A stretch of DNA of 64,000 bases from an uncultured Actinomycetota bacterium (GCA_963743915.1 CAVURN010000005.1:207131-271130); one strand, 5' to 3'. Shown: positions 8,455-31,769, counted from the first letter of the stretch. A program made the numbers and translations. Notes: generated by a model from the letters alone, not told the origin.

Positions 8455-8504
8455 GGCGCCCATCGTCGCACCTCGGGCCCGGACGTGGCACCACGACGCT
8501 CCTC

Positions 8505-12242: not shown

Positions 12243-12243
12243 C

Positions 12244-13552: not shown

Positions 13553-15397
13553 CTACGAGCTGTTGCCGCCACCTCCGGACCCGCCCTGGGCCTGCTGACC
13601 GGAGTCGGCGGGCTTGTCGCTGGGCTTGTCGCTGGGCTTGTCGCTGGGCTTGTCAGAAGGCTTGTCAGAAGGCTTGTCGCTGGGCTTGTCGCTGGGCTTG
13701 GGATCCGGCTTCGCCGAGCAGATGACCGTCGGTGCCGCGCTGTACGAGGTGGACAGCGGCTCCCGGCGCTCGACCTTCCCGTCACGCGACCAGACGCGGG
13801 TGACCACGATGTCGAAGCCGTCGACTCCGTACTGCGCGACGCAGCCTTCGGCCGGGTCGTAGACGGTGCCCGCAGGGCGGATGTTCGTCCGCGGTCCGAA
13901 CTCCGCCTTGATGTCCCAGTACTTGGTGCTCCACATGGTCGTGGTGACGGAGGTGTCCGTGACCGACGCGGTGATCAACACCCCGTAGGGGGTGTCGTTG
14001 CGGAACTTCAGGTCGAGGTTGCCCCACGAGACCGTCGCCTCGAGGCCGGGAAGGTAGCGGGAGATCCAGAAGCCGTGGGCACGCTGCTCGACCCGTGTCA
14101 TGCCGGCGTAGAACGCGGTGTGCCACATCGCCGTGGTGATGGTCGAGACAGCGCCGCCGTAGTCCTCCACGAGCCGGTTGCCCACGATGATGTAGCCCTT
14201 GACGAACCCGTTCTCCGGCGTCCTCTCACCGACGACCCCGTTCAGGCTGAAGGTCTCGCCGGGCTCGAGGACCGTCCCGGTGATCTTCTCGGCTGCGACG
14301 CCGATGTTCGTGACCCGGTACGCGGCGTAGGGGAACTCCTGGGTGAACGTCGAGATGACCTCGCTCACCCCCAGGTCCTTCGCCTCGCGCGTGGTCAGGT
14401 CCGGGACGACCTTGCCCATCTCGAGCTCTGCCCGACGGTCGTCCGCCGCCAAGGCGGCGACCAGCCCGTCGGCGAGCTGCTGGTCGTCGACACCGAAGCC
14501 GGTCTTGCCGGGAACGACCTTGGGCGTCCCTGAGGACACGTCGAACGAGGCATCCACTGCTGGGGTGCCGACCTCGGCAAGGGGCTCACCCAGCAGCTCT
14601 CGGAGAGCCGCACCGTCGACCGTGGGCTCCATGCCGTCCTCCGTGGCCCGGAAGGACAGGACGGCCGCGATCTGTTCCGGCTCCACCGTGAGCGTGGCGC
14701 CGTCGACCTGGAGCGTCACCGGCGCTGACACGGCCTCGACGGCGGCCGTCGCGGCGGTCTCGTCGAGCTCGGACTCGGAGACCAGCGGCTCCACCGTCTC
14801 CACCGCGATGGCGACCGGTTCCTCGCCGACCAGGTAGGAGTCGGCGATCGCAGTGGCGGCGGCGGCCCGGTCGAGGGCGACACCGGCCCGCGGAGCGACC
14901 GTGACCACCTCGCTGCCGTCGTATCCGATGCGTGGTTGTCGGACGGGCTGGTCGACCCGCCGAGCCAGGGCGCGGACGCCACGGGTGAGCTGGCGCGCGT
15001 CCACGTCGATCGCGGGATCGACCTCCTGCCCGAACACCTGGCCCACCAGGCGCAGGGAAAGCGCCTCACGACGAGGCACGGCGTCCACGCTTGCCTCGGG
15101 GTCGAACTGCAGGCCGAAGCGGGACGCCGGGAGGCTCCGGACCCGACCGTCGACGTCCACCGAGACCGACGCGGCGCGCTCGGCAAGCTGATCGTCCAGC
15201 CGTTGCACGGCGGCCACGTCGTCCAGCCCCCCGATGTCGACGCCGGCGACCGTGGTGCCGCGCGGGATCTCGCTCCCGACCCACAGCAGCGCCGTGGCGT
15301 AGGAGAGCAGGAGCGCCGAGACGACGGCGAGCACGACGAAAGTCGTCGCACGGCGCCGTCGCGCAGACCCCTGCCGCGAGGGAACGGACTCACTCAT
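13553..15397 (-). CDS. VanW family protein with N-terminal membrane anchor and C-terminal KPSD repeat tail
   Basis: 614-aa ORF with one N-terminal TM and a VanW-like core (FSLNGVVGERTPENGFVKGYII...WGNLDLKFRNDTPYGVLI). Its ATG overlaps the upstream flavin reductase stop (ATGA). Confidence 0.7.
   Translation of the reverse strand: MSESVPSRQGSARRRRATTFVVLAVVSALLLSYATALLWVGSEIPRGTTVAGVDIGGLDDVAAVQRLDDQLAERAASVSVDVDGRVRSLPASRFGLQFDPEASVDAVPRREALSLRLVGQVFGQEVDPAIDVDARQLTRGVRALARRVDQPVRQPRIGYDGSEVVTVAPRAGVALDRAAAATAIADSYLVGEEPVAIAVETVEPLVSESELDETAATAAVEAVSAPVTLQVDGATLTVEPEQIAAVLSFRATEDGMEPTVDGAALRELLGEPLAEVGTPAVDASFDVSSGTPKVVPGKTGFGVDDQQLADGLVAALAADDRRAELEMGKVVPDLTTREAKDLGVSEVISTFTQEFPYAAYRVTNIGVAAEKITGTVLEPGETFSLNGVVGERTPENGFVKGYIIVGNRLVEDYGGAVSTITTAMWHTAFYAGMTRVEQRAHGFWISRYLPGLEATVSWGNLDLKFRNDTPYGVLITASVTDTSVTTTMWSTKYWDIKAEFGPRTNIRPAGTVYDPAEGCVAQYGVDGFDIVVTRVWSRDGKVERREPLSTSYSAAPTVICSAKPDPKPSDKPSDKPSDKPSDKPSDKPSDKPSDKPADSGQQAQGGSGGGGNSS
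13610..13700 (-). repeat. In-frame 12-nt tandem repeat (7 full units plus a partial one) encoding (KPSD)n
   Basis: gggcttgtcgct / aggcttgtcaga units read directly in the sequence. They translate as KPSDKPSDKPSD... at the VanW C-terminus. Confidence 0.9.
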
Positions 15398-15897
15398 GCC
15401 TCGGCCTTGACCCCCACCGAGCAGTAGCGACGTCGGTAGTAGAGCAGCGGCTCAGGGTCGACCTTCTCCGGGATCTCCACGTTGGTCACCTGGCCGATGA
15501 CCACGTCATGGTCACCGGCGCGGTGGATGTCCGTGGTCCGGCACTCCAACGCGGCGAGCGAACCGTCGAACCAGGCCACCCCACCGGGCGAGCGGTGGTG
15601 CGCGGTGCGGTCGAGCTGGCCGAGCAAGGGACGACCCTTGGTCGCGAACCACCGCGACGTGGCTTCGGCGTCCGCGGGGAGTAGTGAGACGCCCCACAGG
15701 TCGGTGTCGGTGATCGCCGTGCCGAACCGTGACTCCCGTTCGACGCAGACGAGGACGAGCAGCGGGTCGAGCGACACAGAGGCGAACGCGTTCGCCGTCA
15801 TCGCGTGGTCGGTGTCGTCGACGACGCACGTCACGACTGTGATCCCCGTGGCGAAACGACTGACCGCCTCGCGAAAGGCGTCTGGAGTCGGGGTCAC
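15394..15897 (-). CDS. Flavin reductase family protein (FMN-binding split barrel)
   Basis: 167-aa ORF. FREAVSRFATGITVVT ... MTANAFASVSLDPLLVLVCV is typical of the flavin reductase-like domain. Confidence 0.75.
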   Translation of the reverse strand: MTPTPDAFREAVSRFATGITVVTCVVDDTDHAMTANAFASVSLDPLLVLVCVERESRFGTAITDTDLWGVSLLPADAEATSRWFATKGRPLLGQLDRTAHHRSPGGVAWFDGSLAALECRTTDIHRAGDHDVVIGQVTNVEIPEKVDPEPLLYYRRRYCSVGVKAEA

Positions 15898-15923
15898 CCA
15901 AAGACCCTAACCCGAGGTGCGGA

Positions 15924-16883
15924 CTACAGCGCCTGGACTCCCGCGTAGCGGGCGTTGGCGATCACGATGCCGGCCGGGGAGCTGACCAGCCGCAGCGTGT
16001 TGAGCGACGTCTCGCCGAAGGCGTTCGCCCGAGCGCTGGAGAGCGCGAGGACGCCCACCATGCGACCGCCGGCCTTCAGCGGCATCGACAGGAAGGTGGC
16101 CATCTCCCCTTCGTCCTCGGCGCCGAGGTTGCCCTCAGGGTCGGCAACCCGTGCCTGAAGGTCCCCGACGGCCACGTCCGCGCCGGTCGTGTCGGACGCC
16201 GCGTCCGCAAGTCCCTCGAAGAACTCCGCGTACTGCTGCTGCGACGTCTCGCGGGCCACCCGGATGTATGTGGAGTGGTCGTCGAGCATCAGCACCGAGG
16301 CGAGGTCGTAGTCGACCACGCGACTGAGCACGTCGAGGACCTCTGCGATCGTCTCCTCGAACCCGTGGACACCCGAGGCGATCTGTGTCACCTCAGCAGC
16401 GATCGACGACTCGAACAGCTTGCGGTCGAGCAGGTCGCTCACGCTGCCGAACACGTCGTCGTCCTGCATCTCGACGGGATCGGGTCGAAGGGGCGGACGC
16501 CCCCCGCGGCCGGCGTCAGCGGTGGCAAGCACCTCGTGGACGGCCTCCACCAGCTGGGGAGCCTCGAAGTCCTTGGTGAGGAAGCGATCGGCGCCGGCCT
16601 GCGCGCCCCAGTAACGGTCGCTGGCAGCGTCGAGCGAGGTCAGCAGCAGGATCGGGATGTCCGCTGTGCGCCAGTCGTCCTTGAGCAACCGGGCGGCCAC
16701 GTAGCCGGAGACGCGGGGCATCTGGACGTCCAGCACCACCGCGTCCGGCATGTGGCGGAACACGAGCTGAACCGCCTGAACCCCGTCCTCGCCCTGGACG
16801 ACCGTGAACCCCTCGCGCTCCAGCACCGTTGACACGATGCGACGCAGCGTGGGGCTGTCGTCCGCAATGACCACCGTCGGCAT
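15924..16883 (-). CDS. Response regulator with CheY-like receiver plus GAF-like domain and no recognisable output domain
   Basis: Receiver domain (VVIADDSPTLRRIV...LDVQMPRVSGY...LLLTS...FLTKDF). The C-terminal ~170 aa has a GAF-like pattern (DYDLASVLMLDD...GRMVGVLALSS). Confidence 0.7.
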   Translation of the reverse strand: MPTVVIADDSPTLRRIVSTVLEREGFTVVQGEDGVQAVQLVFRHMPDAVVLDVQMPRVSGYVAARLLKDDWRTADIPILLLTSLDAASDRYWGAQAGADRFLTKDFEAPQLVEAVHEVLATADAGRGGRPPLRPDPVEMQDDDVFGSVSDLLDRKLFESSIAAEVTQIASGVHGFEETIAEVLDVLSRVVDYDLASVLMLDDHSTYIRVARETSQQQYAEFFEGLADAASDTTGADVAVGDLQARVADPEGNLGAEDEGEMATFLSMPLKAGGRMVGVLALSSARANAFGETSLNTLRLVSSPAGIVIANARYAGVQAL

Positions 16884-16964
16884 CAGGCGTCCTCTCTCTT
16901 CACTCCCCGAGGACTTCGGCGGAAATCGCTCGTGACTTAACGGCCGGTCGCCGTCGGGAAGGCC

Positions 16965-19175
16965 TCAGCGGCCCACCAGTCGACGGACGGTGTCCACCAG
17001 CTGGTTCTGGTCGAACTCGCTCTTGAGCAGGTAGGCGTTCGCGCCGGCGTCCAGACCGGCCCGCTTGTCCGCCTCGTCCCCCCGGGAGGTCATGATCACC
17101 ACGGGTACGGACTCCCATCCGCGCGTCCGACGGATCGTCCGGGTCAGGGTGAAGCCGTCCATGCCGGGCATCTCGACGTCGGAGAGCACGAGGTCGACGG
17201 GATCCCCACCCAGGCGGGCGGCGCCGTCGGCTCCGTCCACTGCCGTCACGACGTCGTAGCCGGCACCTTCGAGGATCACCCGCTGGAGCTCACGCACGCC
17301 GATCGAGTCCTCGACCACCAGCACCCTTGCGCGTCCACCGCCTCGAGAGCCGGCGGCGGCCGGCGACGCCGGGGCATCGGTTGCACTCTCGACCGGACGC
17401 GCCACCGGGGCATCGAGCGCCACGCCGCGCGCGTACTGCTCGATGGCCAGCTCGCGGACGTCGAGCAGCAGCATGACACTGCCGTCGCTGTCGATGGTGC
17501 CCCCGCCGATGAAGGGAGGGCGTCCCAGGAAGCCGCCGAGGTCCTTGACCACGACCTCGAGCTCACCCTCCAGGGCGTCGACGGCCCAGGCCAGCTGCTC
17601 GGAGGCGTTGCCGTAGCGGACGACGACGCCCACCTTCGTCTCCCGCTCGCTGTGCGCGCCGAGGGCCCGGCCCAGGTCGGCCAACGGGATCGTCGATCCG
17701 TGCCGCACGAGGACCGGCGCGCCCGCGACGGTCGATGTCTCGACGTCGCCCAGGCTGATCGTCTCCACGACGTTCGTCACGGGGACGGCGTAGCGCTCCT
17801 CGCCGAGCCGTGCCACCAGGCACCGCATGACGCCAAGCGTCACCGGGAGGGTCATCACGAAGGTGGTGCCGACGCCGAACTCGCTCTCGATCTCCACCGT
17901 TCCGCCGAGGTCCTCGACCGCCGTGCGGACCACGTCGAGTCCCACGCCCCGTCCGGAGGTGGACGTGACCTCGTCGCGGGTGCTGAAGCCGGGCTGGAAG
18001 AGCACCGAGAAGAGCTGCTGTCCCGTCACCTGGCTGTCCGCGGGAAGCAGCCCACGGTCGATCGCGGAGATCCGGAGCGCCTCCTGGTCGATGCCGTGGC
18101 CGTCGTCGGCCACCTCGATCACGATCGTCGAGCCGGCAGCTCGGGCCGAGACGGTGACGGTGGCCTGAGGCGGCTTGCCGGCAGCAGCGCGCACGTCGGG
18201 TGCGTCGCAGCCGTGGTCGACCGCATTCGTCACCAGGTGACGAAGGGCGTCCGCCACGCCGTCGAGCACGCGGGTGTCGAGCTCGACGTCCTCACCGACC
18301 AGCCGAAGCCGCACGTCCTTGCCAGTCTCGGTCGCCACCTCACGCACCAGCTGCGGGAACGCGGCCACCACCCGACGGACCGGAACCATGGCCAGACCCA
18401 TGGCGCCGTCGCGCACCTGGGCGAGACGGTTCTGCGCGTCCTCCATCGAGCCGCGCATGTCGCGCACAGCTGCCTGGAACTGGTCCCCGAGAGCCACCAG
18501 GGCGTGGATGTTCTCCGACACCTCTGGCGGAAGGGTGACATCGGTGGCCGTGGCCTGACGCAGCAGTCGCACGACGCGGAGGTGCTCGGCCGACATCGCC
18601 GTCAGCTCCAGCACTCCACGTTCGACCCGTCGGGTCTCGAGCTCGGCCTCACCGACCACGTCCAGCAGGGCATGGACCCGGCGGACCGGGACCCGGACCG
18701 ACTCACCCATCTTCGGCCGGTTGTCGACGGTGTCCGTCTCGGTGTCGTCCTCGACGACCGCAGCCCGCGGCACCTCGACCGGGTTCTCCCCGTCGAGAGC
18801 GCTCCCCAACGCGGACACGAGAGCCGCCAGGTCATCGTCGGCGATCGGACGCTCGGAGCCCGGGAGGCCGCGGCGGATGCCTTCGGCAGCCGCGAGCAGC
18901 AGGTCGACCAGGTCGCGTCGAGGGTCGAACCGGCCGTCCCGCACCGCGCCGAGGAGGTCCTCGGAGAGGTGGGCGACCTCGACGACACCCTCGAGACCGA
19001 GCATGCGTGCCGAACCCTTGACGGTGTGGGCGTCGCGGAAGAGAGCCGCGACCAGCTGCCGCGGCTGCGGGTGGCCCTCGAGCTTGAGAAGCCCGTCGCA
19101 GAGCGAAGCCAGACGGTCCTCGACTTCCTGCCGGAACGTCGCCACCAGCTCCGGGTCGTTGGCCCAGCTGCTCAT
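16965..19175 (-). CDS. cheA: Hybrid chemosensory histidine kinase CheA (Hpt-dimerisation-HATPase-CheW-like-REC)
   Basis: Hpt [15 protein letters not shown]; ATPase boxes [30 protein letters not shown]; a CheW-like P5 domain; C-terminal receiver VLVVEDS...[11 protein letters not shown]...LLKS. ATG 19175 overlaps (ATGA) the stop that MCP1 would use without the extra base at 19230. As sequenced, cheA is part of one 1335-aa ORF 16965..20972. Confidence 0.85.
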
Positions 19176-20912
19176 GCGTCCACCTGCTCTCGATTGTCGT
19201 CGGTGGTTTTGAATTGGGCGATGGAGGAGCGACAGGTCGGCGGCGAGGGTGTTCAGCTCGGTCGCGGCGGCGGCGGCCTGCTTGGAGCCGACCGCGTACT
19301 GCCGGGACACATCAGCGACCTGACCCATCGCCGAGACCACCTGCTCCGACGCCGACCTTTGCTGCTGGGTCGCAATGGAAATCTCCTTGGCCGCAGTGGT
19401 CGTCTCATCGACCATCCCAGAGATCTTCTCCAACGCCCCCACCACATCCCGCGCCAACGCCGACCCCGCATGCACCTGCCGCGACCCCTCCTCAGAGGCC
19501 ACGATCGTCGCGTTCGTCTCCGCCTGGATCTGCGTCACGATCGACTGGATCTGCCCCGCCGACTCCTGCGACCGCTCCGCCAACTTCCGGATCTCCGCCG
19601 CCACCACCGCAAACCCCCGACCATGCTCCCCCGCCCGAGCCGCCTCGATCGCCGCATTCAACGCCAACAAATTCGTCTGATCAGCCAACTCATCAATCAC
19701 CTGCAAAATCCGGCCGATCTCCTGACCCTTCTCCCCCAACCCCAACGCCCGCGACGCAATCACATCCACCCGAGCCGCGATCTGATCCATCGACTCCACC
19801 GACGCCGACACCGCCACCTGACCCTGCTCAGCAAACCCCAACGTCTCCGACGCGAACGCCGCCACCTGCTCCGCCGTCTCCGCGATCTGCGCCGCCGTCG
19901 CCGCCAACTCCTCAATCGTCGCGCTCGTCTCCGCCACCGCCGAGGACTGCTGCGACGCAGCAGCCGCCTGCTCCCGAGCCGCCACCAACACCTGAGACGC
20001 CGCCGCCCCAATCCGCTCCCCACCCGACCGCACCCCAGCCACCAACCCCCGCAACGACCCCAACGTGTGATCCAGGGAGCCGGAGAGGGCGAGGATGTAT
20101 TGGCTGCGCTCGAAGCCGAAGTCTGTTCCCTCGTCGAGGTCGGAGACCTCGACCCGCGCGGTGAGGTCACCCTGGGAGGCCGCCTCGAGTGCGACAGACA
20201 GCTGGCGCACCTGGTCGACGAGGAGGGCCTGGTCCCAGCCGGTTCCCTCGGCCGTGTCGTAGAGGGTGCGGCTGACTCCACGGACGATCAGGAAGGCGGC
20301 GGGCAGACCGATGCTGAGGGCCACTACAAGGGTGAAGGTCTGCGACCCAGGTGCGGGGAGCCCTCCGACGGCGATCCACTGGCTGACCGCTGGCAACAGG
20401 GCGAGCAGTGCCGCCATCGCCCAGCCCGACGCGTAGACCAGGACCGTGCCGAGGTAGGCCGAGCCGACCACGACAGGCAGCCACTCCGCGCTGGTCACGC
20501 CCCCCGTCCAGATAGTGGCAAGCGCCACCACGACAACCTGCGCCATGCCCAGCAGGCCGTCCCACCGGTCCGTTCGGGCGTAGGTGTGGTGCTCCCGGTA
20601 GGCGCGGACCGCCAGCAACGACGCGGCAACGGCGATCACCGCTCCGACCGTCCACACCAACCACAGCTGGGCCTGGATCGGCTCCTTCTCCGCGACGTGC
20701 CACAGGAAGCCGATGAGGACGCTGAACGAGACCAGACCCGTGTGCAGAGAGATCGTCTCGCCGACGTTGCGGCGACTGAAGCTGAGGGAGGCGCCCCCCG
20801 CCTTGGTCCGGTCGATCGCGTCCAGGACAGTGCTGACCGACGACTCACTAGACGGCCGTCCGGACGAGACTGCACCCGGCGACGGGTCGAGCGGCGCGCT
20901 CGTCGTGCTCAC
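19172..20912 (-). CDS. Methyl-accepting chemotaxis protein paralog 1 (six-TM sensor), 3' end shifted by a 1-nt insertion so the ORF reads into cheA
   Basis: GTG 20912 is preceded by GGAGGAG. About six hydrophobic helices are followed by the MCP hairpin tip [36 protein letters not shown]. The feature length is 3n+1. End 19172 is the stop in the uninserted frame (..[18 protein letters not shown]). Confidence 0.75.
19198..20076 (-). repeat. MCP signalling-module repeat, copy 1 of 5 (~870 bp, near-identical)
   Basis: Direct comparison with the other four copies. Variant states: C at 19386, C at 19872, extra base at 19230. Confidence 0.9.
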
Positions 20913-21009
20913 TGCTCCTCCTCGAGGCGTGCTGGGCCGCACTGGCTCAGCCCAGGCAGGGACGAGCCACACGGGTTCCTGATGTCAGATCGGCCCGAAC
21001 CAGGCCCGG

Positions 21010-21029
21010 CTGTAGCCCGTTCGGGGGAC
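21010..21029 (-). promoter_or_regulatory. Conserved 20-nt motif ctgtagcccgttcgggggac upstream of MCP1 (also at 26527..26546)
   Basis: An exact 20-nt match in two otherwise dissimilar upstream regions, 98 nt and 59 nt from the MCP1 and MCP4 starts. Function unknown. Confidence 0.3.
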
Positions 21030-21075
21030 AACGGAAAGCGCCAGCGGGTGCCGGATCTGGCCTTACACTGGCCGC

Positions 21076-21513
21076 ATGGCGAGGACCCGCTACCCGCTCC
21101 TGGTTGCGGGCGCGGGCATGGCGCTGCTCTCGGCATGTCAATCCTCAGGCATCAACGATCAGGACGCTTTCCTTGCCGAGGTACAGCTCTGCCCGGCCAC
21201 CGGACGACTCCCCCAGAACCGCACACCCACCTGTGAAGTGCCACCAGAAGGTTTGATCTCCCTTGGCCTTGACGCCTGCAGCTGGCTTCACGGCCAGCCA
21301 TTGGCCCGTCTCAAGCCAGCGTCCCAGCCTTACTGGAAGGACCCCCACGACGTGCATAACGTGGCCAGCCAGTTTGCACGGCAAGAACGCACCACGGCGG
21401 CCGTGCCACTGCAGGACGCCGAACAGTCGAATGTCGCGTACTTCGCCTGGCGCCATCTGTGCCGGGACCTGGAGACCCGGTACAACTTCAACGTGCACGA
21501 ATACTCCGACTGA
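21076..21513 (+). CDS. Putative lipoprotein, Cys-rich, atypical codon usage
   Basis: The signal peptide has lipobox LLSAC. 145 aa. Roughly a quarter of codons end in A/T by eye count, far more than neighbouring genes. It is convergent with MCP2. Confidence 0.55.
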   Translation: MARTRYPLLVAGAGMALLSACQSSGINDQDAFLAEVQLCPATGRLPQNRTPTCEVPPEGLISLGLDACSWLHGQPLARLKPASQPYWKDPHDVHNVASQFARQERTTAAVPLQDAEQSNVAYFAWRHLCRDLETRYNFNVHEYSD

Positions 21514-21554
21514 CCATCCCACGCGGCCCGGCGGAGTGGTGCGGGCGACGGATC

Positions 21555-22418
21555 TGGCTCAGGCGTCGGTGGTTTTGAATTGGGCGATGGAGGAGGACAG
21601 GTCGGCGGCGAGGGTGTTCAGCTCGGTCGCGGCGGCGGCGGCCTGCTTGGAGCCGACCGCGTACTGCCGGGACACATCAGCGACCTGACCCATCGCCGAG
21701 ACCACCTGCTCCGACGCCGACCTTTGCTGCTGGGTCGCAATGGAAATCTCTTTGGCCGCAGTGGTCGTCTCATCGACCATCCCAGAGATCTTCTCCAACG
21801 CCCCCACCACATCCCGCGCCAACGCCGACCCCGCATGCACCTGCCGCGACCCCTCCTCAGAGGCCACGATCGTCGCGTTCGTCTCCGCCTGGATCTGCGT
21901 CACGATCGACTGGATCTGCCCCGCCGACTCCTGCGACCGCTCCGCCAACTTCCGGATCTCCGCCGCCACCACCGCAAACCCCCGACCATGCTCCCCCGCC
22001 CGAGCCGCCTCGATCGCCGCATTCAACGCCAACAAATTCGTCTGATCAGCCAACTCATCAATCACCTGCAAAATCCGGCCGATCTCCTGACCCTTCTCCC
22101 CCAACCCCAACGCCCGCGACGCAATCACATCCACCCGAGCCGCGATCTGATCCATCGACTCCACCGACGCCGACACCGCCACCTGACCCTGCTCAGCAAA
22201 CCCCAACGTCTCCGACGCGAACGCCGCCACCTGCTCCGCCGTCTCCGCGATCTGCGCCGCCGTCGCCGCCAACTCCTCAATCGTCGCGCTCGTCTCCGCC
22301 ACCGCCGAGGACTGCTGCGACGCAGCAGCCGCCTGCTCCCGAGCCGCCACCAACACCTGAGACGCCGCCGCCCCAATCCGCTCCCCACCCGACCGCACCC
22401 CAGCCACCAACCCCCGCA
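21555..22418 (-). repeat. MCP signalling-module repeat, copy 2 of 5
   Basis: Direct comparison. Variant states: T at 21751, C at the site equivalent to 19872, no insertion. Confidence 0.9.
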
Positions 22419-23118
22419 GGTGGCCGAGCGTTTCGTCGAGGGACCCACTCAGCTCCTGCACGAAGACGGGCGCGTCGGCATCCACCGTTCCCAGGGTCAC
22501 CACGAGGTTTCCGCGGGAGACATCGGCCAAAGCTGACGAGAGCTCCTCCACCTTGGCGTTCACCACGTCACGCTCGGCATTGGCCTCGTACCGAAGGTCG
22601 TACAGGTACGACGCTGACTGCTCCATGAACCACGTGCTGAGGGCCAGTCCCAGGGCCACCATCACCCCGACCGGGATCGTCGTGGGCCCCCAGGTGTCGG
22701 TCACGAAGCCCGTCGACAGGAAGGCGAGCGCGAGTCCGACACTCATGAACCGCAGAGTCTTGGGCACGAAGGTGACGCCGAGAAAGGGGATGACCACGAA
22801 GTAGGGAACCCAGGCCACCCCAGCCGGCCCACCGGTCGTGGCCGTCAGCGCGGTGATCGCTCCGAGCTGGAGCCAGACGGTCGGCTGGTCCCAGATTCCG
22901 GTGGTCTCGATCGGCAGCTGCCGGAGCCAGGCACGCGCCGCGAAGGTGGAGGCGACGGCGCCGGTGACACAGGAGAACACCCAGAGGGCAGCGAGAACCG
23001 GCCAGGCGGCGGCCTCAACGTCCAGGTACCGCACCGTGAGCAGCGCAGCCAGGCCCAGCAGCAGGACCACGCCCACATGCAGGCACAAGGTCGACAGGAA
23101 GTCGCGGCGGGTGAACAC
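21559..23118 (-). CDS. Methyl-accepting chemotaxis protein paralog 2 (six-TM sensor), intact
   Basis: GTG 23118 follows GAGGAG. 519 aa, ending ..[17 protein letters not shown]. The signalling domain is identical to the other copies. Confidence 0.85.
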
Positions 23119-23205
23119 GGCACTCCTCGAGGTTCTGGGTCCGTGGGGATCTCCCAGTGGCCCAGTGAAGCGTCGACAGTTCGAGGACTGACCTGAAGAC
23201 CTGCC

Positions 23206-24837
23206 TCAGTGGTGGCTCAGGCGTCGGTGGTTTTGAATTGGGCGATGGAGGAGCGACAGGTCGGCGGCGAGGGTGTTCAGCTCGGTCGCGGCGGCGGCGG
23301 CCTGCTTGGAGCCGACCGCGTACTGCCGGGACACATCAGCGACCTGACCCATCGCCGAGACCACCTGCTCCGACGCCGACCTTTGCTGCTGGGTCGCAAT
23401 GGAAATCTCTTTGGCCGCAGTGGTCGTCTCATCGACCATCCCAGAGATCTTCTCCAACGCCCCCACCACATCCCGCGCCAACGCCGACCCCGCATGCACC
23501 TGCCGCGACCCCTCCTCAGAGGCCACGATCGTCGCGTTCGTCTCCGCCTGGATCTGCGTCACGATCGACTGGATCTGCCCCGCCGACTCCTGCGACCGCT
23601 CCGCCAACTTCCGGATCTCCGCCGCCACCACCGCAAACCCCCGACCATGCTCCCCCGCCCGAGCCGCCTCGATCGCCGCATTCAACGCCAACAAATTCGT
23701 CTGATCAGCCAACTCATCAATCACCTGCAAAATCCGGCCGATCTCCTGACCCTTCTCCCCCAACCCCAACGCCCGCGACGCAATCACATCCACCCGAGCC
23801 GCGATCTGATCCATCGACTCCACCGACGCCGACACCGCCACCTGACCCTGCTCAGCAAACCCCAACGTCTCCGACGCGAACGCCGCCACCTGCTCCGCCG
23901 TCTCCGCGATCTGCGCCGCCGTCGCCGCCAACTCCTCAATCGTCGCGCTCGTCTCCGCCACCGCCGAGGACTGCTGCGACGCAGCAGCCGCCTGCTCCCG
24001 AGCCGCCACCAACACCTGAGACGCCGCCGCCCCAATCCGCTCCCCACCCGACCGCACCCCAGCCACCAACCCCCGCAACGACCCCAACGTGTGATCGAAC
24101 GACTGGGCGAGTCTCTCCACCGCGACCGCGTCGCCCTCGAGGGTCGAGAGCGCGACGGCGTGTCCCACCTCGGCGTCCAACCGGCCAGAAGCGGCCCGCT
24201 CCATCGCCGAGGACAGCTCCTCGACGCGAGTGTCCAGATGCGCGCGACTGCGGGCCAGGGTGTCGGCCTCGTCGTACAACGCGCGCGACAGTGTCCGGAT
24301 CATCAGATAGCTGGTCGGGAGAACGGCACTCAGCGCCGCCGCCAGCAGGATGTCGAACCGGTCCGACGAGGCGGACATGAGGTACACCGCCCATGGCGAC
24401 GCCAGCAGCACAAGAGCGACGTACCAGCGGAGCTCATGGACGAGGGCGCTTGCGAGGTAGGTGAGCGCCACGAAGGAGAGGATCCACAAGGGGCTCTGGG
24501 CGCCGCCCGTCCAGGCCGCGCCCGCAACCACGGCCAGGGTTGCCGCGGCAGCCGTCGGACCGTCCCAGGGGTCGGTCTGGTCGTAGCCGTAGCCTCGACG
24601 CAGTGCCTGCAGGCTCAGCAGCGTGGTCGCCAGGGCCACCAGGATCTGCACACCCATCACGACAGCGATCTGCGGTGGCACGGTGCTGCCGGTGGCCCAC
24701 ACCCAGCCCCCGGTGAGGACCAGGACCCCGAGCACCAGACCCCAGTGGAGAGTGATGGTCTCGACGGCGTTGCGGACGGAGAACCGGACGGATACGTCGG
24801 GTTCTGTCTCGCGAGCTGCCGCTGGCGACGAGCTCAT
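23206..24837 (-). CDS. Methyl-accepting chemotaxis protein paralog 3 (six-TM sensor), alternative C-terminal tail caused by a 1-nt insertion
   Basis: 543 aa. The insertion at 23254 replaces [12 protein letters not shown] with [18 protein letters not shown] 24837 overlaps the MCP4 stop (ATGA). Confidence 0.8.
23213..24096 (-). repeat. MCP signalling-module repeat, copy 3 of 5
   Basis: Direct comparison. Variant states T, C and insertion present. Confidence 0.9.
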
Positions 24838-26468
24838 GGCCCGGCGCCCCCTGACACCCCCGCCGTCTGGTTCTCAACAGGTACGTCATGCGCCTTGAAT
24901 TGGGCGATGGAGGAGGACAGGTCGGCGGCGAGGGTGTTCAGCTCGGTCGCGGCGGCGGCGGCCTGCTTGGAGCCGACCGCGTACTGCCGGGACACATCAG
25001 CGACCTGACCCATCGCCGAGACCACCTGCTCCGACGCCGACCTTTGCTGCTGGGTCGCAATGGAAATCTCCTTGGCCGCAGTGGTCGTCTCATCGACCAT
25101 CCCAGAGATCTTCTCCAACGCCCCCACCACATCCCGCGCCAACGCCGACCCCGCATGCACCTGCCGCGACCCCTCCTCAGAGGCCACGATCGTCGCGTTC
25201 GTCTCCGCCTGGATCTGCGTCACGATCGACTGGATCTGCCCCGCCGACTCCTGCGACCGCTCCGCCAACTTCCGGATCTCCGCCGCCACCACCGCAAACC
25301 CCCGACCATGCTCCCCCGCCCGAGCCGCCTCGATCGCCGCATTCAACGCCAACAAATTCGTCTGATCAGCCAACTCATCAATCACCTGCAAAATCCGGCC
25401 GATCTCCTGACCCTTCTCCCCCAACCCCAACGCCCGCGACGCAATCACATCCACCCGAGCCGCGATCTGATCCATCGACTCCACCGACGCCGACACCGCC
25501 ACCTGACCCTGCTCAGCAAACCCCAACGTCTCCGACGCGAACGCCGCCACCTGCTCAGCCGTCTCCGCGATCTGCGCCGCCGTCGCCGCCAACTCCTCAA
25601 TCGTCGCGCTCGTCTCCGCCACCGCCGAGGACTGCTGCGACGCAGCAGCCGCCTGCTCCCGAGCCGCCACCAACACCTGAGACGCCGCCGCCCCAATCCG
25701 CTCCCCACCCGACCGCACCCCAGCCACCAACCCCCGCAACGACCCCAACGTGTGATCCAGGCGTCCAGCCAGGGATGCCGTCTGGTCGCCCTGCAGGGGC
25801 AGCTGGGCCATGGCCACCTCGAGGTCGCCCGCTGCGACGACGTCGGCAGCCCCCGACAAGGTGGCGACGTCGGACTCGACCGCCTTCCGCGTCGTGTGTG
25901 CCTCGTGCTGGGCGCGCAGCATGCTCATGGTCATCAGGTCGGTGACGGTGGCCAAGATGATGGCGAGCACGCACAGCCCCACGCCGCGTGCTGCTCCCTC
26001 GCCGGACCAGGTGTCTGTCACGAGACCGACGATGCCGATCGCCCCGGCGATGAAGAAGCCAAGGAACCGGGCCACGAACCCGGCGAAGACGCCGCTGGCG
26101 TAGGTGATCATGACCAGCGACAACACAGGCACCGGAGTTTCCAGCCCGCCCGCGAACGCACCCATCGTCAAAGACACCCCGAGCGTCACCGCGGTCGTCG
26201 GACGGTCCCACCGGTCCGTCTCTTCGAAGGAGTCCCCACGACGGACCGCGCGTGTCGACAGCCAGCACACCAGGGCGACGTTGGTGAGCAGGACGGCATA
26301 CAGGCCGACCAGGGCCGGCACCTGAAGCACGATGTGCGGTTCGAAGACCGCCGTGGCCCAGACCAGGACGGGCGCCGCCACCAGCACCCCGAGGTGGGAC
26401 GCGATGGTCTCGGTGCGAGACCGCGCCACATAGGGGATCTCGCTGTAGTCCACGTCGTCGGCGAACAC
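24834..26468 (-). CDS. Methyl-accepting chemotaxis protein paralog 4 (six-TM sensor), intact
   Basis: GTG 26468 follows GGAGGAG. 544 aa, ending ..[27 protein letters not shown]. Confidence 0.85.
24895..25761 (-). repeat. MCP signalling-module repeat, copy 4 of 5
   Basis: Direct comparison. Variant states C, A and no insertion. Confidence 0.9.
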
Positions 26469-26526
26469 CGGCGCTCCTCCATCTTGATCGGGTGATCAGT
26501 ACCTCTTCGACCAGCCCTGAAGGTGC

Positions 26527-26546
26527 CTGTAGCCCGTTCGGGGGAC
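26527..26546 (-). promoter_or_regulatory. Conserved 20-nt motif ctgtagcccgttcgggggac upstream of MCP4
   Basis: Exact repeat of 21010..21029, in the 130-nt gap between MCP5 and MCP4. Confidence 0.3.
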
Positions 26547-26598
26547 TGCCCACGATCTGTCACATCGCGATCCGGGTCTTCTCCGGCACCGCTCGCGC

Positions 26599-28203
26599 TC
26601 AGACCTTGGAACGCTCCAAGGGGGGTTCGGCGTCGGTGGTTTTGAATTGGGCGATGGAGGAGCGACAGGTCGGCGGCGAGGGTGTTCAGCTCGGTCGCGG
26701 CGGCGGCGGCCTGCTTGGAGCCGACCGCGTACTGCCGGGACACATCAGCGACCTGACCCATCGCCGAGACCACCTGCTCCGACGCCGACCTTTGCTGCTG
26801 GGTCGCAATGGAAATCTCTTTGGCCGCAGTGGTCGTCTCATCGACCATCCCAGAGATCTTCTCCAACGCCCCCACCACATCCCGCGCCAACGCCGACCCC
26901 GCATGCACCTGCCGCGACCCCTCCTCAGAGGCCACGATCGTCGCGTTCGTCTCCGCCTGGATCTGCGTCACGATCGACTGGATCTGCCCCGCCGACTCCT
27001 GCGACCGCTCCGCCAACTTCCGGATCTCCGCCGCCACCACCGCAAACCCCCGACCATGCTCCCCCGCCCGAGCCGCCTCGATCGCCGCATTCAACGCCAA
27101 CAAATTCGTCTGATCAGCCAACTCATCAATCACCTGCAAAATCCGGCCGATCTCCTGACCCTTCTCCCCCAACCCCAACGCCCGCGACGCAATCACATCC
27201 ACCCGAGCCGCGATCTGATCCATCGACTCCACCGACGCCGACACCGCCACCTGACCCTGCTCAGCAAACCCCAACGTCTCCGACGCGAACGCCGCCACCT
27301 GCTCAGCCGTCTCCGCGATCTGCGCCGCCGTCGCCGCCAACTCCTCAATCGTCGCGCTCGTCTCCGCCACCGCCGAGGACTGCTGCGACGCAGCAGCCGC
27401 CTGCTCCCGAGCCGCCACCAACACCTGAGACGCCGCCGCCCCAATCCGCTCCCCACCCGACCGCACCCCAGCCACCAACCCCCGCAACGACCCCACGGTT
27501 CGGTCGAGTGCGTGACCAAGCTCGTCGAGCTGCTCGGCCCGTGCTCCCACGTCGTCGCGCAGCGTCCAGGTGTTCGCCTCACGGTGACCGTCAGGTCGCC
27601 CTCGGCGGTCTCGACGAGCACGCGGGAGAGCTCCTCCACCCGGCTGCTGACCGCCGCCTCGAGCTGTTCGGCGGTGAAGCGCTCGGCATACAGGTCCGAG
27701 GCATAGAAGTAGACGACACCGACCAGGAAGGTCAGCGTGGCGCCGACGAGCAGACCGGTCTGCCAGTGGTCGGTCCAGGTGTCGGAGTACCAGCCGGCGA
27801 TTCCGACCGAGGCACCCACCAGCAGGAGCCCACCGCGCAGCGAGTAGCCCAGCTCCACCGACATCCCCAGGTAGGGCGCCCACAGGAAAGCGAGAAAGAG
27901 GGTCGGCGCCGCCAGCCCGCCGGTGACGGCCACCAGGACGGCGACGAGCAGGATGCTCACGTACGTGGTGACGCTCTCCCAGCGCATCGTGTCGACGAGT
28001 GACTGCCCCTGGTGAACGGCGCGCACCGCGAGTCCGGTGACCGACAGCGCGTTCGCCAGCAGCAGGCCGACCGTGACGGCAGCACCCAGCCGGTGGGCGT
28101 CGGTGTCGATCGTCGACCACGCCATCCAGGTCGTCAGGACGGCCGCCAGCAGGACGATCCAGTGCTGGCCACTCGACTCGATGCTGTTACGACGGGTGTA
28201 CAC
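26599..28203 (-). pseudogene. Methyl-accepting chemotaxis protein paralog 5, disrupted by two frame changes as sequenced
   Basis: The six-TM N-terminus is in the frame of ORF 27193..28203, and the signalling domain is in the frame of ORF 26186..28120. The junction lies after ..AEGDLTVTV, near 27575-27585. The insertion at 26663 also removes the normal stop (26599), so the ORF runs on to 26186. Confidence 0.7.
26629..27495 (-). repeat. MCP signalling-module repeat, copy 5 of 5
   Basis: Direct comparison. Variant states T, A and insertion present. Confidence 0.9.
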
Positions 28204-28232
28204 CGCGCCTCCTCGTGGGGTGAAGGGACGGG

Positions 28233-28739
28233 TCAGACAGCCGCTCGACGCGCTGACGGAAGCTGGTCGCGCAGACGCAGGACCGCCTCGGTCGCGAGCA
28301 GCGCGACCGGACCGTCGACGTCCACGACCCCCTGCACGAGGGGTGCGATACCGGTCGCGATGGTCGCGGGGATCGGCTCGAGCGCGTTGGGGTCACAGTC
28401 GAGCAGGCCCGGCACCATGTCCGCGACGAGACCGACCTCGACGTCGTCCTCGGACAGCACGACGAGGCGGGCACTCGTGGGCATCGGCGACAGCGGTGCC
28501 CCCACAAGCGGCCGCAGGTCGACCACGGGCAGGACGCGCCCGCGCCAGTTCACGACGCCGGAGAGCCAAGCCGGGGCGCCGGGAACGCGGGTCACGACGG
28601 GGACCGGGACCACCTCGGCGACGCTGGCCATGTCCACGGCATAACGGGCTCCGGCGAAGCGCAGGATCACCCCGCCGATCGGCGCGACGTGCTCGTCGGC
28701 CTCGGCGGCGTCGGCAAGGCTGGTCGGTGCTGACTCCAC
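28233..28739 (-). CDS. cheW: CheW-like coupling protein
   Basis: The pattern RFAGARYAVDMASVAEVV...PGAPAWLSGVVNWRGRVLPVVDLRPL...VGLVADMV is typical of CheW. GTG 28739 was chosen because the upstream part of the ORF overlaps the FtsH-like gene in another frame. Confidence 0.75.
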   Translation of the reverse strand: MESAPTSLADAAEADEHVAPIGGVILRFAGARYAVDMASVAEVVPVPVVTRVPGAPAWLSGVVNWRGRVLPVVDLRPLVGAPLSPMPTSARLVVLSEDDVEVGLVADMVPGLLDCDPNALEPIPATIATGIAPLVQGVVDVDGPVALLATEAVLRLRDQLPSARRAAV

Positions 28740-28783
28740 GGACAGACCATCGGCCGTCCGGGTGACGACCTGAAGTGCCGAGA

Positions 28784-30787
28784 TCAGGAGCGCGCGGGGG
28801 CCTTCCCGGGCTCCCGGAGGTCGATCACCTGATCCGTCGAGGCCCCCTGGGCCTCGAGGAGGATGTCCGTGATCTCCCGGCCGATCAGCTCCTCGCGCTC
28901 GAGCAGGGCGTCGCGGAGGGCCTCGACGAGGTGGGTGTTCTCCTCGAGGAGCGCCTTGACGACGACCTTTTGCTCCTGGAGGAGGTCCTCGACAGCGGCT
29001 CGGCCGGATCCGTCGGCCAGCACGCGTCCGACGATGTTGCTGTCGTTGAAGGCGCTGTTCTGCACCGCCGCGAACGAGATCAGCGAGTCGAGCATCCCGC
29101 ACGAGCCCACCATCTCGGCTGCGACGTTCGTGGCATACAGGAGGTCTCCCCCCGGGCCGGTCGACACGTCACCGAAGAAGATCTCCTCCGAGCACTGACC
29201 GCCGAGGGCGATCTGGATGAGGGCCAGCATCTCGGAGCGTGACCTCGTGTAGACCTCTTCGGCGTCACCGTGCGCCAACATGCCGAGCGCCGAACGCCGC
29301 TTGACGATGGTGAGGACCTCCAGGCGGCGCTCCGGCGCCACCAGGAAGGCAGCCGTCGCATGGCCGGCCTCATGAGTGGCGATGAGCCGTCGTTCGTGGT
29401 CGGTGTAGGACACGGGCTGCCCCATGCCGACCTCTTCGACCAGCCGCGCCCGCTCGACGTCCTTCCACGTCATCGCCGAGTCACCCCGGCGAACCGCGTT
29501 CACCAGCGCCTCGTCGAGCAGGTGCTCGATCATCACCGGCGTGTACCCCTGGGTGGCACCGGCGAGCGAGTCCCGCCTGTCGTCGTCGTCCAGCTCCGCG
29601 TTGTGCGACTTGAGGGCCAGGTAGTGGTCGATGATCTCGCGGCGCCCGTTCTTGGTGGGCAGCTCGAAGGTGAGCCGGCGGTCGAAACGTCCAGGACGCA
29701 GGAGCGCGGGGTCGAGGTTGTCCGCGCGGTTGGTCGCGGCGATGAGCAGGATGTTGGTCGGCGGCGGCTCCGGACGCTGCATCTGCCGGTGAGCGGGCAG
29801 GTACAGGTTGGCCCTGTCCACCACCTTGGTCATCAGCTTCTGCCAGCCGGTCGGCTCGTCGAACGACTGCATCTGCACGAGCAGCTCGTTGACCACACCA
29901 CCCACGCCCTCGCTCACCACCGACGCGTTGGTCACCAGCCCGGCCGGCGTCCCGTAGCTGGAAGGCAGCGACGTCAGGCCCCCGCACGCCTGGATGCCGA
30001 GCGACGCCAGCGACTGCGGCATCGAGGTCGCCGACAGACCCCCTCGGGCCATCGCGATGGCGTCGATCTCCTCGATGAAGCCGATCGCACCACCTTCCGA
30101 TCGGGCCACCTTGCGCAGCTGCTTGAAGTACGAGCGGATCTTCCGGGCGGTCGCCCCGTAGTACATCGACTGGAAGGACGTGGCGGACACGAACATGAAG
30201 GGCACGCCGGCCTCGCGAGCCATGGCCTTGGCGAGGAAGGTCTTGCCGGTGCCGGGGGCCCCTTCGAAGAGGAGTCCCCGCCGCGGCGTCCCGCCCATGT
30301 CGTTGGCGAAGGTGCGGTGGGCCAGGAACAGGTTGAGCGAGCGGACGACCTCCTCCTTGACCGGATCGATGCCCTTGACGTCGTCCAGCCGGGTGGCGAT
30401 CTGCTCGGGCCGGTACAGGACGTGTGGCGAGCGGCCCGCGCCGACCGTGGTTCCGACCAGGATCAGCAGCAGCGCACCGAAGAAGAGGATGGGAACGAGC
30501 AGGTACGCGTCGATGCTCGGCAGGCCCCAGCCCACCGGGTCGCCGGTGACGATCCGGTACCACAGGTAGGCGGCGGGGATCCCGAGCATCACCGCGAGGC
30601 TGCGCAGGCGGCGGCGACGGCGCTGCTCACGGGTGGCACCGACGTCGGCGTCGCGTGCGGTCAGCACCGTGGCGCTTCCCAGGCCCGTCGGCTTCTCCAC
30701 CAGCTGATCACGCTCGGTGTCGGACACCGCGCCTCCTTCGCCCCTGCGCCCGGCCCCGCCATCACCGAGCGTCACGATGGTGCCCAC
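28784..30787 (-). CDS. FtsH-like AAA+ zinc metalloprotease paralog
   Basis: Walker A GAPGTGKT, Walker B GFIEEID, and M41 zinc site HEAGHA. The two N-terminal TM helices are separated by only a short loop. An extra segment follows Walker B. The start is uncertain. Confidence 0.8.
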   Translation of the reverse strand: MGTIVTLGDGGAGRRGEGGAVSDTERDQLVEKPTGLGSATVLTARDADVGATREQRRRRRLRSLAVMLGIPAAYLWYRIVTGDPVGWGLPSIDAYLLVPILFFGALLLILVGTTVGAGRSPHVLYRPEQIATRLDDVKGIDPVKEEVVRSLNLFLAHRTFANDMGGTPRRGLLFEGAPGTGKTFLAKAMAREAGVPFMFVSATSFQSMYYGATARKIRSYFKQLRKVARSEGGAIGFIEEIDAIAMARGGLSATSMPQSLASLGIQACGGLTSLPSSYGTPAGLVTNASVVSEGVGGVVNELLVQMQSFDEPTGWQKLMTKVVDRANLYLPAHRQMQRPEPPPTNILLIAATNRADNLDPALLRPGRFDRRLTFELPTKNGRREIIDHYLALKSHNAELDDDDRRDSLAGATQGYTPVMIEHLLDEALVNAVRRGDSAMTWKDVERARLVEEVGMGQPVSYTDHERRLIATHEAGHATAAFLVAPERRLEVLTIVKRRSALGMLAHGDAEEVYTRSRSEMLALIQIALGGQCSEEIFFGDVSTGPGGDLLYATNVAAEMVGSCGMLDSLISFAAVQNSAFNDSNIVGRVLADGSGRAAVEDLLQEQKVVVKALLEENTHLVEALRDALLEREELIGREITDILLEAQGASTDQVIDLREPGKAPARS

Positions 30788-30831
30788 TCTCCCCCAGCGT
30801 CAGCGAGCGCGACAGTGGGCGGAAGGGGGCG

Positions 30832-31746
30832 TCACCCGGTCGGCGTAAGGCCGGCGAACAGGTCGTGCTCGAGGCCGTCGTCACCGGTCGGCCCCAAGGT
30901 GCCGCGGGCCAGCCGGAAGTACTCCACGCCCATGGCTTCCGGACCGGCGAGCTCGGACAGCCGGAAGAAGTCGTTCTCGGTCCCCACCTGACTGAGATGT
31001 TCCCGAAGGGCGGCGATCTTGACCGGCTCGTGCTCCAGCGCTCGCACTCGGGTGGTGACCCACACGTCGTCCAGTGCCCAGTCGAGCTCCTGGCCCTCTT
31101 CGAGTCCGAAGAAGCCCTGACCCCCGGCGGCGACGAAGGCGTCGATGCCCTGCTGAACGGCGGACTGGGGCAGCGCCGTCCAGTACAGCTTGGACACCTC
31201 CCACGCGTCACCCAGCTCGGGGCGGAACGACGGGACCGCCGCCAGCAGCAACGCGTAGCTGGTCACCCGGTGTGCCTGGATGTGGTCCGGGTGGCCGTAC
31301 TGACCGAAGTCGTCGTAGGTGACGACCACCTGGGGCCGCACGCGCCGGATCGTGCTCACCAGGTGCGTCGCCGCCTCGAGCAGGTCGGCCTGCCAGAAGC
31401 AGTCGGGGCGGTCGTTGGTGGGCAGACCCATCATTCCCGAGTCGCGGTAGCGCCCGGGGCCTCCGAGGTACTCGTGGTCGGTGACGCCGAGAGCGGCCAG
31501 CGCCGAAGCCAGCTCGACGCGGCGGTGCCCACCCAGCTCGTCCCGTTCGTGCGCGGCCAGATGCCCCAGCTCGGGGACGAGGACCTCGCCCTCTTCACCC
31601 AGGGTGCAGGTGACCAGCGCCACGTGGGCTCCCTCGGTGACGTACTTCGCCATCGTCACACCGGTTCCGATGGTCTCGTCGTCCGGATGCGCGTGGACGA
31701 GGAGCAGGCGGCGGTCGGCGGTCGGCACCGACGGGGAGGAAGACAT
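30832..31746 (-). CDS. mshB: N-acetyl-1-D-myo-inosityl-2-amino-2-deoxy-alpha-D-glucopyranoside deacetylase (mycothiol biosynthesis)
   Basis: LLLVHAHPDDETIG, VTCTLGEEGEV, GGPGRYRDSGM and VVTYDDFGQYGHPDH closely track the MshB sequence as I recall it. Confidence 0.85.
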   Translation of the reverse strand: MSSSPSVPTADRRLLLVHAHPDDETIGTGVTMAKYVTEGAHVALVTCTLGEEGEVLVPELGHLAAHERDELGGHRRVELASALAALGVTDHEYLGGPGRYRDSGMMGLPTNDRPDCFWQADLLEAATHLVSTIRRVRPQVVVTYDDFGQYGHPDHIQAHRVTSYALLLAAVPSFRPELGDAWEVSKLYWTALPQSAVQQGIDAFVAAGGQGFFGLEEGQELDWALDDVWVTTRVRALEHEPVKIAALREHLSQVGTENDFFRLSELAGPEAMGVEYFRLARGTLGPTGDDGLEHDLFAGLTPTG

Positions 31747-31769
31747 GGAGCCGACTGTACGACTGCTGG

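Follow-up and report, generated by a model that had tools for sequence, protein, structure and literature searches.

The window analysed here is a stretch of 64 kb from an uncultured soil actinobacterium, in which genes were called as open reading frames (ORFs) and domains were assigned with Pfam, supplemented by NCBIfam for some of them. Positions 15924-28739 harbour a chemosensory gene cluster. On the minus strand, cheW is followed by five genes for methyl-accepting chemotaxis proteins (MCP5, MCP4, MCP3, MCP2 and MCP1), a hybrid cheA and the gene of a receiver-GAF (REC-GAF) regulator, with a lipoprotein gene inserted on the opposite strand between MCP2 and MCP1. This order had been proposed in a first-pass annotation of the same DNA and is borne out, position by position, by the ORFs and their Pfam matches:

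28233-28739, minus strand: cheW, coupling protein (Pfam CheW, 8e-30)
26599-28203, minus strand: MCP5, with two breaks as assembled, a frameshift near 27560 and an extra G at 26663
24834-26468, minus strand: MCP4, intact, with the normal C-terminal tail SSSIAQFK (MCPsignal, 2.7e-43)
23206-24837, minus strand: MCP3 (MCPsignal, ~3e-43), C-terminal tail altered by an extra G at 23254
21559-23118, minus strand: MCP2, intact, normal tail (MCPsignal, ~3e-43)
21076-21513, plus strand: lipoprotein ORF, starting MARTRYPLLVAGAGMALLSAC, with the lipobox LLSAC
19172-20972, minus strand: MCP1, likely true start a GTG near 20909, after a GGAGGA motif
16965-20972, minus strand: MCP1 and cheA as assembled, a single ORF of 1335 amino acids (aa)
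16965-19175, minus strand: hybrid cheA, ATG at 19175 (Hpt 3e-16, HATPase_c 8e-23, CheW 2e-18, Response_reg 9e-25)
15924-16883, minus strand: REC-GAF regulator (Response_reg 5e-24, GAF_2 6e-13; GAF and GAF_3 also matched)

The genes are closely packed. The ORF listing places cheW 44 nt past the stop of an FtsH-like protease gene and, as annotated before, 29 nt ahead of the MCP5 start. The overlap of the MCP4 stop with the MCP3 start (ATGA at 24834-24837) was likewise confirmed, and the gap noted in front of MCP1 consists of ~165 nt of divergent intergenic DNA. Two further points hold in part. The 130-nt gap in front of MCP4 exists only once the extra G at 26663 is removed, which gives MCP5 its stop, and MCP1 and cheA, annotated as separate genes, possess the expected domains but are joined in one 1335-aa ORF as assembled. 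Methylation-type EE/QQ motifs, including ATQQQRS, are found in every receptor copy, in accordance with the initial description. Pfam analysis of every sizeable ORF also agrees that cheR, cheB, a stand-alone cheY, cheZ/X and flagellar genes are absent from the 64 kb, and detected no pilus domains; the absence of these genes applies to this window, and 64 kb are too short a stretch to show that the cluster is self-contained. A promoter and terminator scan of 15300-31900 gave no promoter-like and one terminator-like site, fewer than shuffled sequence, and is uninformative with respect to transcription units.

Receptor array with a shared signalling module

MCP1 to MCP4 match the MCPsignal profile with 146-148 bits (cutoff 34.6) and display the conserved hairpin tip, which identifies them as MCPs. 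In MCP5, the same signalling module is present in a shifted frame (ORF 26186-28120). At the DNA level, the five signalling modules are direct repeats of ~825-850 nt each, which begin where a degenerate HAMP-like linker ends, run up to the C-terminal tail and are at least 99.8% identical:

19196-20060, minus strand: signalling repeat copy 1 (MCP1)
~21561-22425, 23220-24100, 24881-25765 and 26629-27500, minus strand: the other copies of the signalling repeat

Variation among the repeats is limited to two single-nucleotide polymorphism (SNP) sites, both at synonymous third-codon positions, and one 1-nt indel, and the encoded 273 residues are identical across all five copies. In MCP2, 141 residues lead from the repeat start to the hairpin-tip Glu and 143 follow it, corresponding to ~2 x 20 heptads by length count only.

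The N-terminal sensor halves present a different picture. They are polytopic, with ~3-7 transmembrane helices predicted from hydropathy and no large extracellular loop, and within the window they are only 29-40% identical to each other in global alignments. Neither a Pfam nor an NCBIfam family was matched. A profile of the sensor module retrieved just 97 matches from 1.84 billion representative proteins, and since every full-length match tested is an MCP, the module is confined to this lineage and to MCPs.

Related loci were collected by a scan of one genome per species, which yielded 80 loci, all of them in metagenome-assembled genomes (MAGs) and many in long-read 'MFD' assemblies. They are labelled Actinomycetes, Sporichthyaceae, Ca. 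Nanopelagicales, Frankiaceae, Mycobacteriales, Acidothermaceae or Motilibacteraceae. Among the 49 loci with at least 9 kb of sequence upstream of cheA, 28 contain one MCP, 13 contain two, the second being divergent (37-49% identical), and eight contain three to six. In loci labelled Frankiaceae or Mycobacteriales (L056-L082, ~9100-9950), it is such a second MCP, again 37-49% identical, that adjoins cheA.

Within nine multi-copy genomes, the DNA of the signalling modules is mostly 99-100% identical between copies, with lower values in the loci L038 (98-99.5%) and L031 (95-99.6%), and the module of the window shares 81-88% DNA identity with those of the other multi-copy genomes. The sensor halves of the window, in contrast, are 46-74% identical to their positional orthologues in other species: MCP4 reaches 74% with a gene of L013, MCP5 63% with the first MCP of L015, and MCP1 55% and 53% with the last MCP of L013 and L015, respectively. 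Paralogous sensor halves attained 23-37% in the same search, far below the orthologue values. Since the sensor halves are closer to cross-species orthologues than to their paralogues, the duplications predate the species splits and only the C-terminal module was homogenised. The closer relationship of paralogues in the converted module and of orthologues in the sensor flank is what concerted evolution would be expected to leave behind. Moreover, the three variable sites (two SNPs and the indel) combine into five haplotypes, with all four combinations at every pair of sites, and the identical tracts start at different 5' positions from copy to copy. Such mosaic variants and shifting tract ends, as far as three sites can tell, conform to the pattern expected of patchy conversion tracts.

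In this genome and its close relatives, the receptor array arose by tandem amplification of one ancestral gene, and gene conversion keeps the kinase-control module of every copy identical and leaves the sensor halves free to diverge. Homogenisation is probably kept up by self-reinforcing RecA-dependent conversion between the long identical tandem repeats, and probably also by selection for every receptor to fit one CheW/CheA array. With at least five receptors, a frozen module and sensors that have diverged to ~30% identity, the array illustrates modular evolution in nature with unusual clarity. In some arrays, one MCP has escaped homogenisation; its module is 60% identical to that of the window in L013 (2126-2977) and L015 (5684-6532).

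It is highly improbable that the near-identity of the modules reflects an artefact of assembly or polishing, or a very recent duplication, instead of long-term gene conversion. Polishing of long-read metagenome assemblies can over-homogenise repeats, and this exact genome is represented by one assembly only. However, the same pattern recurs in eight other independent MAGs from different species, and in relatives, short-read assemblies are interrupted at the edge of the repeat, as a true identical multi-copy segment would cause them to be. Their contigs stop within the repeat, 140-190 nt ahead of cheA, and many of the sensor-profile matches are only 240-290 aa long and stop at the end of the sensor profile, where the signalling repeat begins; on both grounds the repeat is considered real. 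A recent duplication is excluded by the divergence of the sensor halves (29-40% identity), which have closer orthologues in other species. Because the signalling modules are identical in DNA, short-read metagenome assemblies break at this locus, and receptor counts derived from them are underestimates. One short-read contig (L012, 8389-9953) carries one MCP whose sensor half matches residues 1-143 of MCP5, after which the frame changes; apparently, the assembler has collapsed an array through the repeat.

A search of the literature for gene conversion or identical signalling domains in bacterial chemoreceptors returned a sole precedent, Tlp2, Tlp3 and Tlp4 of Campylobacter jejuni, whose signalling domains are identical and whose sensor domains are ~30% identical (PMC9769880). 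In both cases, the output half is homogenised and the input half diverges. However, the C. jejuni receptors are encoded by three dispersed genes, carry periplasmic dCache_1 sensors, belong to the 28-heptad (28H) class and serve a flagellar system, and gene conversion was not demonstrated in that report.

Extra guanine in three receptor genes

On the plus strand, an extra G is found at 19230 in MCP1, at 23254 in MCP3 and at 26663 in MCP5, whereas MCP2 and MCP4 lack it. It is the G at 19230 that places MCP1 and cheA in one frame and thereby creates the fusion. Removal of the G in silico restored the normal tail in all three receptors; MCP1 then terminates at a TGA (19172-19174) that overlaps the ATG of cheA, and a stop reappears in MCP5 at 26599-26601. 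MCP5 contains a second frameshift near 27560, in the HAMP-like linker, which leaves an N-terminal ORF at 27193-28203; the orthologue in L015 (63% identical) is intact at the equivalent site. In all relatives, the MCP stop and the cheA start overlap in an ATGA and the extra G is missing, also in short-read contigs with 96% and 93% identical CheA. The segment CATCGCCCAATTCAA, which encodes IAQFK, is invariant in DNA across the relatives. Because IAQFK forms the canonical helix end of MCP signalling domains, a cost would be expected from its loss in three receptors.

The most likely explanation for the MCP1-cheA fusion, the changed tails of MCP3 and MCP5 and the MCP5 frameshift is that they are indel errors of a long-read metagenome assembly. 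A point against this reading is that the G does not lie in a homopolymer and that MCP2, without it, and MCP3, with it, match perfectly over no fewer than 34 nt to either side; basecalling errors driven purely by context would not readily account for this, and the G may be real. If so, MCP1 and CheA would form one receptor-kinase of 1335 aa, MCP3 would have acquired a new tail and MCP5 would be a pseudogene, the allele having spread by gene conversion. This alternative is doubtful, yet it draws on several observations: the G occurs at the same site in three copies and is missing from two with identical local context, the two SNPs demonstrate that the assembly separates the copies, both SNPs are synonymous as real variants would be, and the shift happens to bring MCP1 into the frame of cheA. 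On the other hand, none of the relatives carries the G, not even the two short-read contigs with the closest-matching CheA given above, and the best 120 of 2714 CheA homologues are without exception proteins of their own, almost all 729-788 aa long, none of them fused to an MCP. The G destroys the ...SIAQFK helix end whose DNA is invariant across the relatives, and with it MCP5 would read on for ~140 codons into the MCP4 start. Further frameshifts occur in the window and in related long-read MAGs, whose loci contain many split genes, and there is no other record of exactly this MCP3 protein.

A scan of Joint Genome Institute (JGI) metagenomes for the site, with or without the G, gave no matches, and of the exact MCP3 and MCP4 proteins neither is on record. 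A short-read contig of the same species (L002) breaks off 52 nt ahead of cheA and misses the G site by 3 nt. Programmed frameshifting at the G site was rejected, as there is no slippery motif and the relatives encode the tail in frame.

Outside the che cluster, a gene for a family-5 solute-binding protein (SBP_bac_5) of an Opp-type transporter (37127-38960, minus strand) is split into two overlapping ORFs, of which 37620-38960 covers profile positions 1-240 and 37127-37855 positions 262-363. The split is a frameshift or an assembly indel.

Class of the pathway and its output regulator

The hybrid CheA is composed of an Hpt domain with the histidine motif present, a dimerisation region, HATPase_c, a single CheW domain and a C-terminal receiver; a P2 or CheY-binding domain was not matched by Pfam. 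As read from the sequence, the receivers of CheA and of the REC-GAF protein both retain the acidic pocket, the phospho-acceptor Asp and the conserved Thr and Lys, which in the latter correspond to D8, D9, D52, T82 and K104. The best 120 of the CheA homologues are nearly all stand-alone and metagenomic, and the named ones belong to Actinomycetes or Sporichthyaceae. Over the aligned N- and C-terminal regions, the CheA of the window is 63-66% identical to the homologue P0396, whose 90%-identity cluster includes CheA WP_011720708.1 of Acidothermus cellulolyticus 11B. This protein is listed as the CheA of the class with alternative cellular functions (ACF) in A. cellulolyticus, with classes reported as verified with MiST (PMC10746217, Table S3).

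The A. cellulolyticus ACF cluster (CheA WP_011720708.1, CheW WP_011720706.1) is orthologous to that of the window. Its genes for a PIG-L protein corresponding to mshB, a large FtsH-like protein (691 aa), CheW, one MCP, CheA-REC and REC-GAF follow in the same order, with an additional 175-aa ORF ahead of cheW; xseAB, glpX and fumarase, also present in the window, come after REC-GAF, and sdhAB is nearby in both. In contrast to the five receptors with homogenised signalling modules in the window, A. cellulolyticus has a single MCP, and its CheA is longer (824-839 aa). The same species possesses a separate flagellar system of class F5, and its ACF CheB, CheR and a second CheW are encoded at a distant locus (WP_011719060-62) (PMC10746217, Table S3). 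Neither CheR nor CheB is found in the window or listed among the genes around the orthologous A. cellulolyticus cluster. The earlier suggestion that adaptation enzymes are possibly encoded elsewhere fits this arrangement, since the ACF CheB and CheR of A. cellulolyticus sit at a distant locus.

The ACF class is typified by a CheA with a C-terminal receiver, usually no P2 and one CheW domain (class statistics in PMC10782961) and is paired with 40-heptad (40H) receptors (PMC10746217). In F5, to which the flagellar systems of later-branching Actinobacteria usually belong, CheA contains two CheW domains, the genes are ordered AW...BR and the receptors have 38 heptads (38H) (PMC10746217, PMC10782961). 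The CheA of the window follows the ACF pattern, with a receiver, one CheW domain and no P2 match. It departs from F5 in its single CheW domain, in the absence of cheB and cheR nearby and in receptors that measure ~40 heptads by length. Moreover, no flagellar or type IV pilus genes accompany the cluster within 64 kb, and its output candidate is a REC-GAF protein and not a motor-binding CheY, as expected of an ACF system.

The cluster belongs to a string of co-directional genes that is conserved among the relatives, in the order mshB, FtsH-like gene, cheW, MCP, cheA-REC and REC-GAF, often followed by flavin reductase and VanW genes. In the window, its upstream end is formed by:

28784-30787, minus strand: gene of an FtsH-like AAA+/M41 protease (Peptidase_M41 6e-29, AAA 2.5e-28)
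30832-31746, minus strand: mshB, at the head of the co-directional string (TIGR03445, 331 bits; cutoff 224)

CheW is encoded upstream of cheA in 46 of the 49 loci mentioned above and the FtsH-like protein in 41, in 39 of which mshB lies upstream of the FtsH-like gene; REC-GAF directly follows cheA in 63 of the 66 loci with enough flank. In the FtsH-like protein, Pfam matched AAA in two stretches, with an insertion of ~95 residues inside the domain, and the NCBIfam profile FtsH_fam scored 286 bits (cutoff 600). It is a divergent FtsH paralogue that occurs together with mshB and the che genes and, to judge from synteny, possibly a functional partner of the pathway.

No standard output domain is apparent in the REC-GAF protein, as had been noted at the outset: Pfam detected REC and GAF only, and the AlphaFold model (predicted local distance difference test, pLDDT, 82) agrees, displaying a receiver (1-126), a long helix (141-170), a GAF fold (175-314) and nothing more. 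A homologue search gave 817 matches; of the 120 listed, those of full length are REC-GAF proteins of ~320 aa with 66-93% identity. All 60 matches shown of the 251 from a sequence search against the PDB fall on the receiver, and a fold search (Foldseek) with the full-length model returned mostly receivers. Closest in the arrangement of receiver, helical linker and GAF is a REC-GAF dual-sensor histidine kinase (6OAQ/6OAP; Foldseek E = 6e-14). With the GAF domain alone, the best match was the GAF domain of a response regulator from Nostoc PCC 7120 (3P01; TM-score 0.65), a protein without assigned function, followed by generic GAF folds that indicate no ligand or partner. Sequence identity to 6OAQ and 3P01 is just 12-16%. 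Furthermore, 6OAQ combines a bilin-binding GAF with a kinase output, whereas the window protein has no cysteine in the GAF region and no output domain. A literature search on REC-GAF or CheY-GAF proteins gave no account of a chemosensory output.

These data support the view put forward in the first-pass annotation that the cluster serves an alternative function, given an orthologous CheA listed as ACF, one CheW domain plus a receiver, no P2 match and a receptor length that suggests ~40 heptads. The cluster is considered to be an ACF-type, non-flagellar chemosensory pathway that is vertically inherited in a mostly uncultured lineage of Actinomycetes (probability about 0.75). The lineage includes MAGs labelled Sporichthyaceae, Ca. 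Nanopelagicales, Frankiaceae and Acidothermaceae. The pathway thus belongs to a known class, with the orthologue of a cultured species already listed as ACF, whereas the REC-GAF output, the lineage-specific family of polytopic sensors and the tandem array with DNA-identical modules are not described in the literature searched.

The ACF prototype is the Wsp system of Pseudomonas, and the name WspE, in KEGG style, is attached to two MAG homologues of the window CheA (P0109 and P0356). Wsp resembles the cluster in its ~40-heptad MCP, its CheW, its hybrid CheA with a C-terminal receiver (WspE) and a regulator with non-motor output. However, CheR (WspC), CheB (WspF) and two CheW-like proteins are encoded in the same operon, the output is REC-GGDEF (WspR) instead of REC-GAF, and one receptor with a periplasmic domain takes the place of the array of polytopic receptors.

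An ordinary flagellar chemotaxis system, with cheR, cheB, cheY and flagellar genes elsewhere in the genome, would be compatible with the view of only 64 kb of that genome and with the retention of methylation-type EE/QQ motifs. The related families Sporichthyaceae and Motilibacteraceae include motile species, which also counts in its favour. CheB and CheR of A. cellulolyticus are, moreover, encoded at another locus (PMC10746217). Nevertheless, this explanation is very unlikely. An F5 CheA would have two CheW domains, AW...BR order and 38H receptors, in contrast to the one CheW plus receiver and the ~40 heptads measured here; the orthologue in A. cellulolyticus is listed as an ACF CheA, in a species that has F5 as a separate system; and the partner regulator is a REC-GAF protein in 63 of 66 loci.

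Several points weigh against the ACF pathway as outlined and temper the confidence in it. The class assignment relies on an orthologue classified by others and on a count of receptor length, and cheR, cheB, cheY or flagellar genes may lie outside the 64 kb. Signal, phosphotransfer route and output are all deduced from domain content and conserved residues. HAMP was not found by Pfam in the MCPs of the window, and one relative gave a weak HAMP match. Concerning the FtsH-like gene, its spacing to cheW varies, roughly from 60 to 650 nt between matched segments, an extra 175-aa ORF lies between the two genes in A. cellulolyticus, and the adjacency may reflect only the shared ancestry of the neighbourhood.

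Within an ACF-type pathway, the membrane-embedded polytopic receptors with their degenerate HAMP could sense a cue that arises in or at the membrane and control the hybrid CheA through CheW. All receptor copies would fit one CheW and one CheA because gene conversion keeps the module identical. CheA would then phosphorylate its own receiver, acting as a sink or relay, and the REC-GAF protein. As the latter is devoid of an enzymatic or DNA-binding domain, it would most likely act by phosphorylation-controlled dimerisation or by GAF-mediated binding of a partner or ligand. The FtsH-like membrane protease is a candidate target or partner, on synteny alone. A bolder and unlikely version regards the array as recombination-driven sensor cassettes, in which frequent unequal crossing-over in 0.85-kb modules reshuffles the sensors, a frameshift allele spread by the same conversion gives rise to the MCP-CheA chain in this genome and REC-GAF controls the FtsH-like protease. 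If true, strains would differ in their receptor repertoire, with sensor modules added, deleted or reordered, and membrane sensing would be linked to regulated proteolysis.

ACF systems are frequent in genomes, but few have a known output, and a REC-GAF output represents an uncharacterised type of regulator. That the system is conserved beside mshB and the FtsH-like gene in many Actinomycetes from soil and fresh water, among them A. cellulolyticus, which can be cultured, makes its function genetically testable.

Flanking genes

Both flanks of the cluster had been described as housekeeping genes. The genes are located as described; however, the association of mshB and the FtsH-like gene with the che cluster is conserved, as set out above. 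On the other side lies the mtrAB-lpqB region, assigned by Pfam:

7777-8646: mtrA
6100-7776: mtrB
4383-6152: lpqB

The rest of the window contains, by Pfam, a MoxR/DUF58 set, VanW, flavin reductase, peptidase S9, an Opp transporter and typA, as well as sdhAB, xseAB, glpX and fumarase. The wider neighbourhood (30832-47220 and 55055-61795), comprising typA, opp, mshB, sdhAB, xseAB, glpX and fumarase, is shared with the A. cellulolyticus locus (L089), which places the che cluster in an old conserved chromosomal core and not in an island.

The lipoprotein ORF within the array matched neither a Pfam nor an NCBIfam family. Among the 80 related loci, only L013 encodes a homologue (20650-21084; 75% identical), situated ~8.4 kb downstream of the cheA end. 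The lipoprotein gene is no conserved part of the system and, in view of this location, appears to have moved into the receptor array in this genome.

A set of DUF4350, MoxR-type AAA (AAA_3) and DUF58 genes occupies 9655-13548 (plus strand), between the mtrAB-lpqB region and VanW; it is not at the matching place in the close relatives checked (L013, L015, L016, L031 and L038). Over the MCP array (20001-28000), the GC skew is strongly negative (-0.08 to -0.195) at a GC content of 0.67-0.69, slightly below the flanks. The negative skew is attributed to the repeated Ala/Gln-rich signalling modules on the minus strand.

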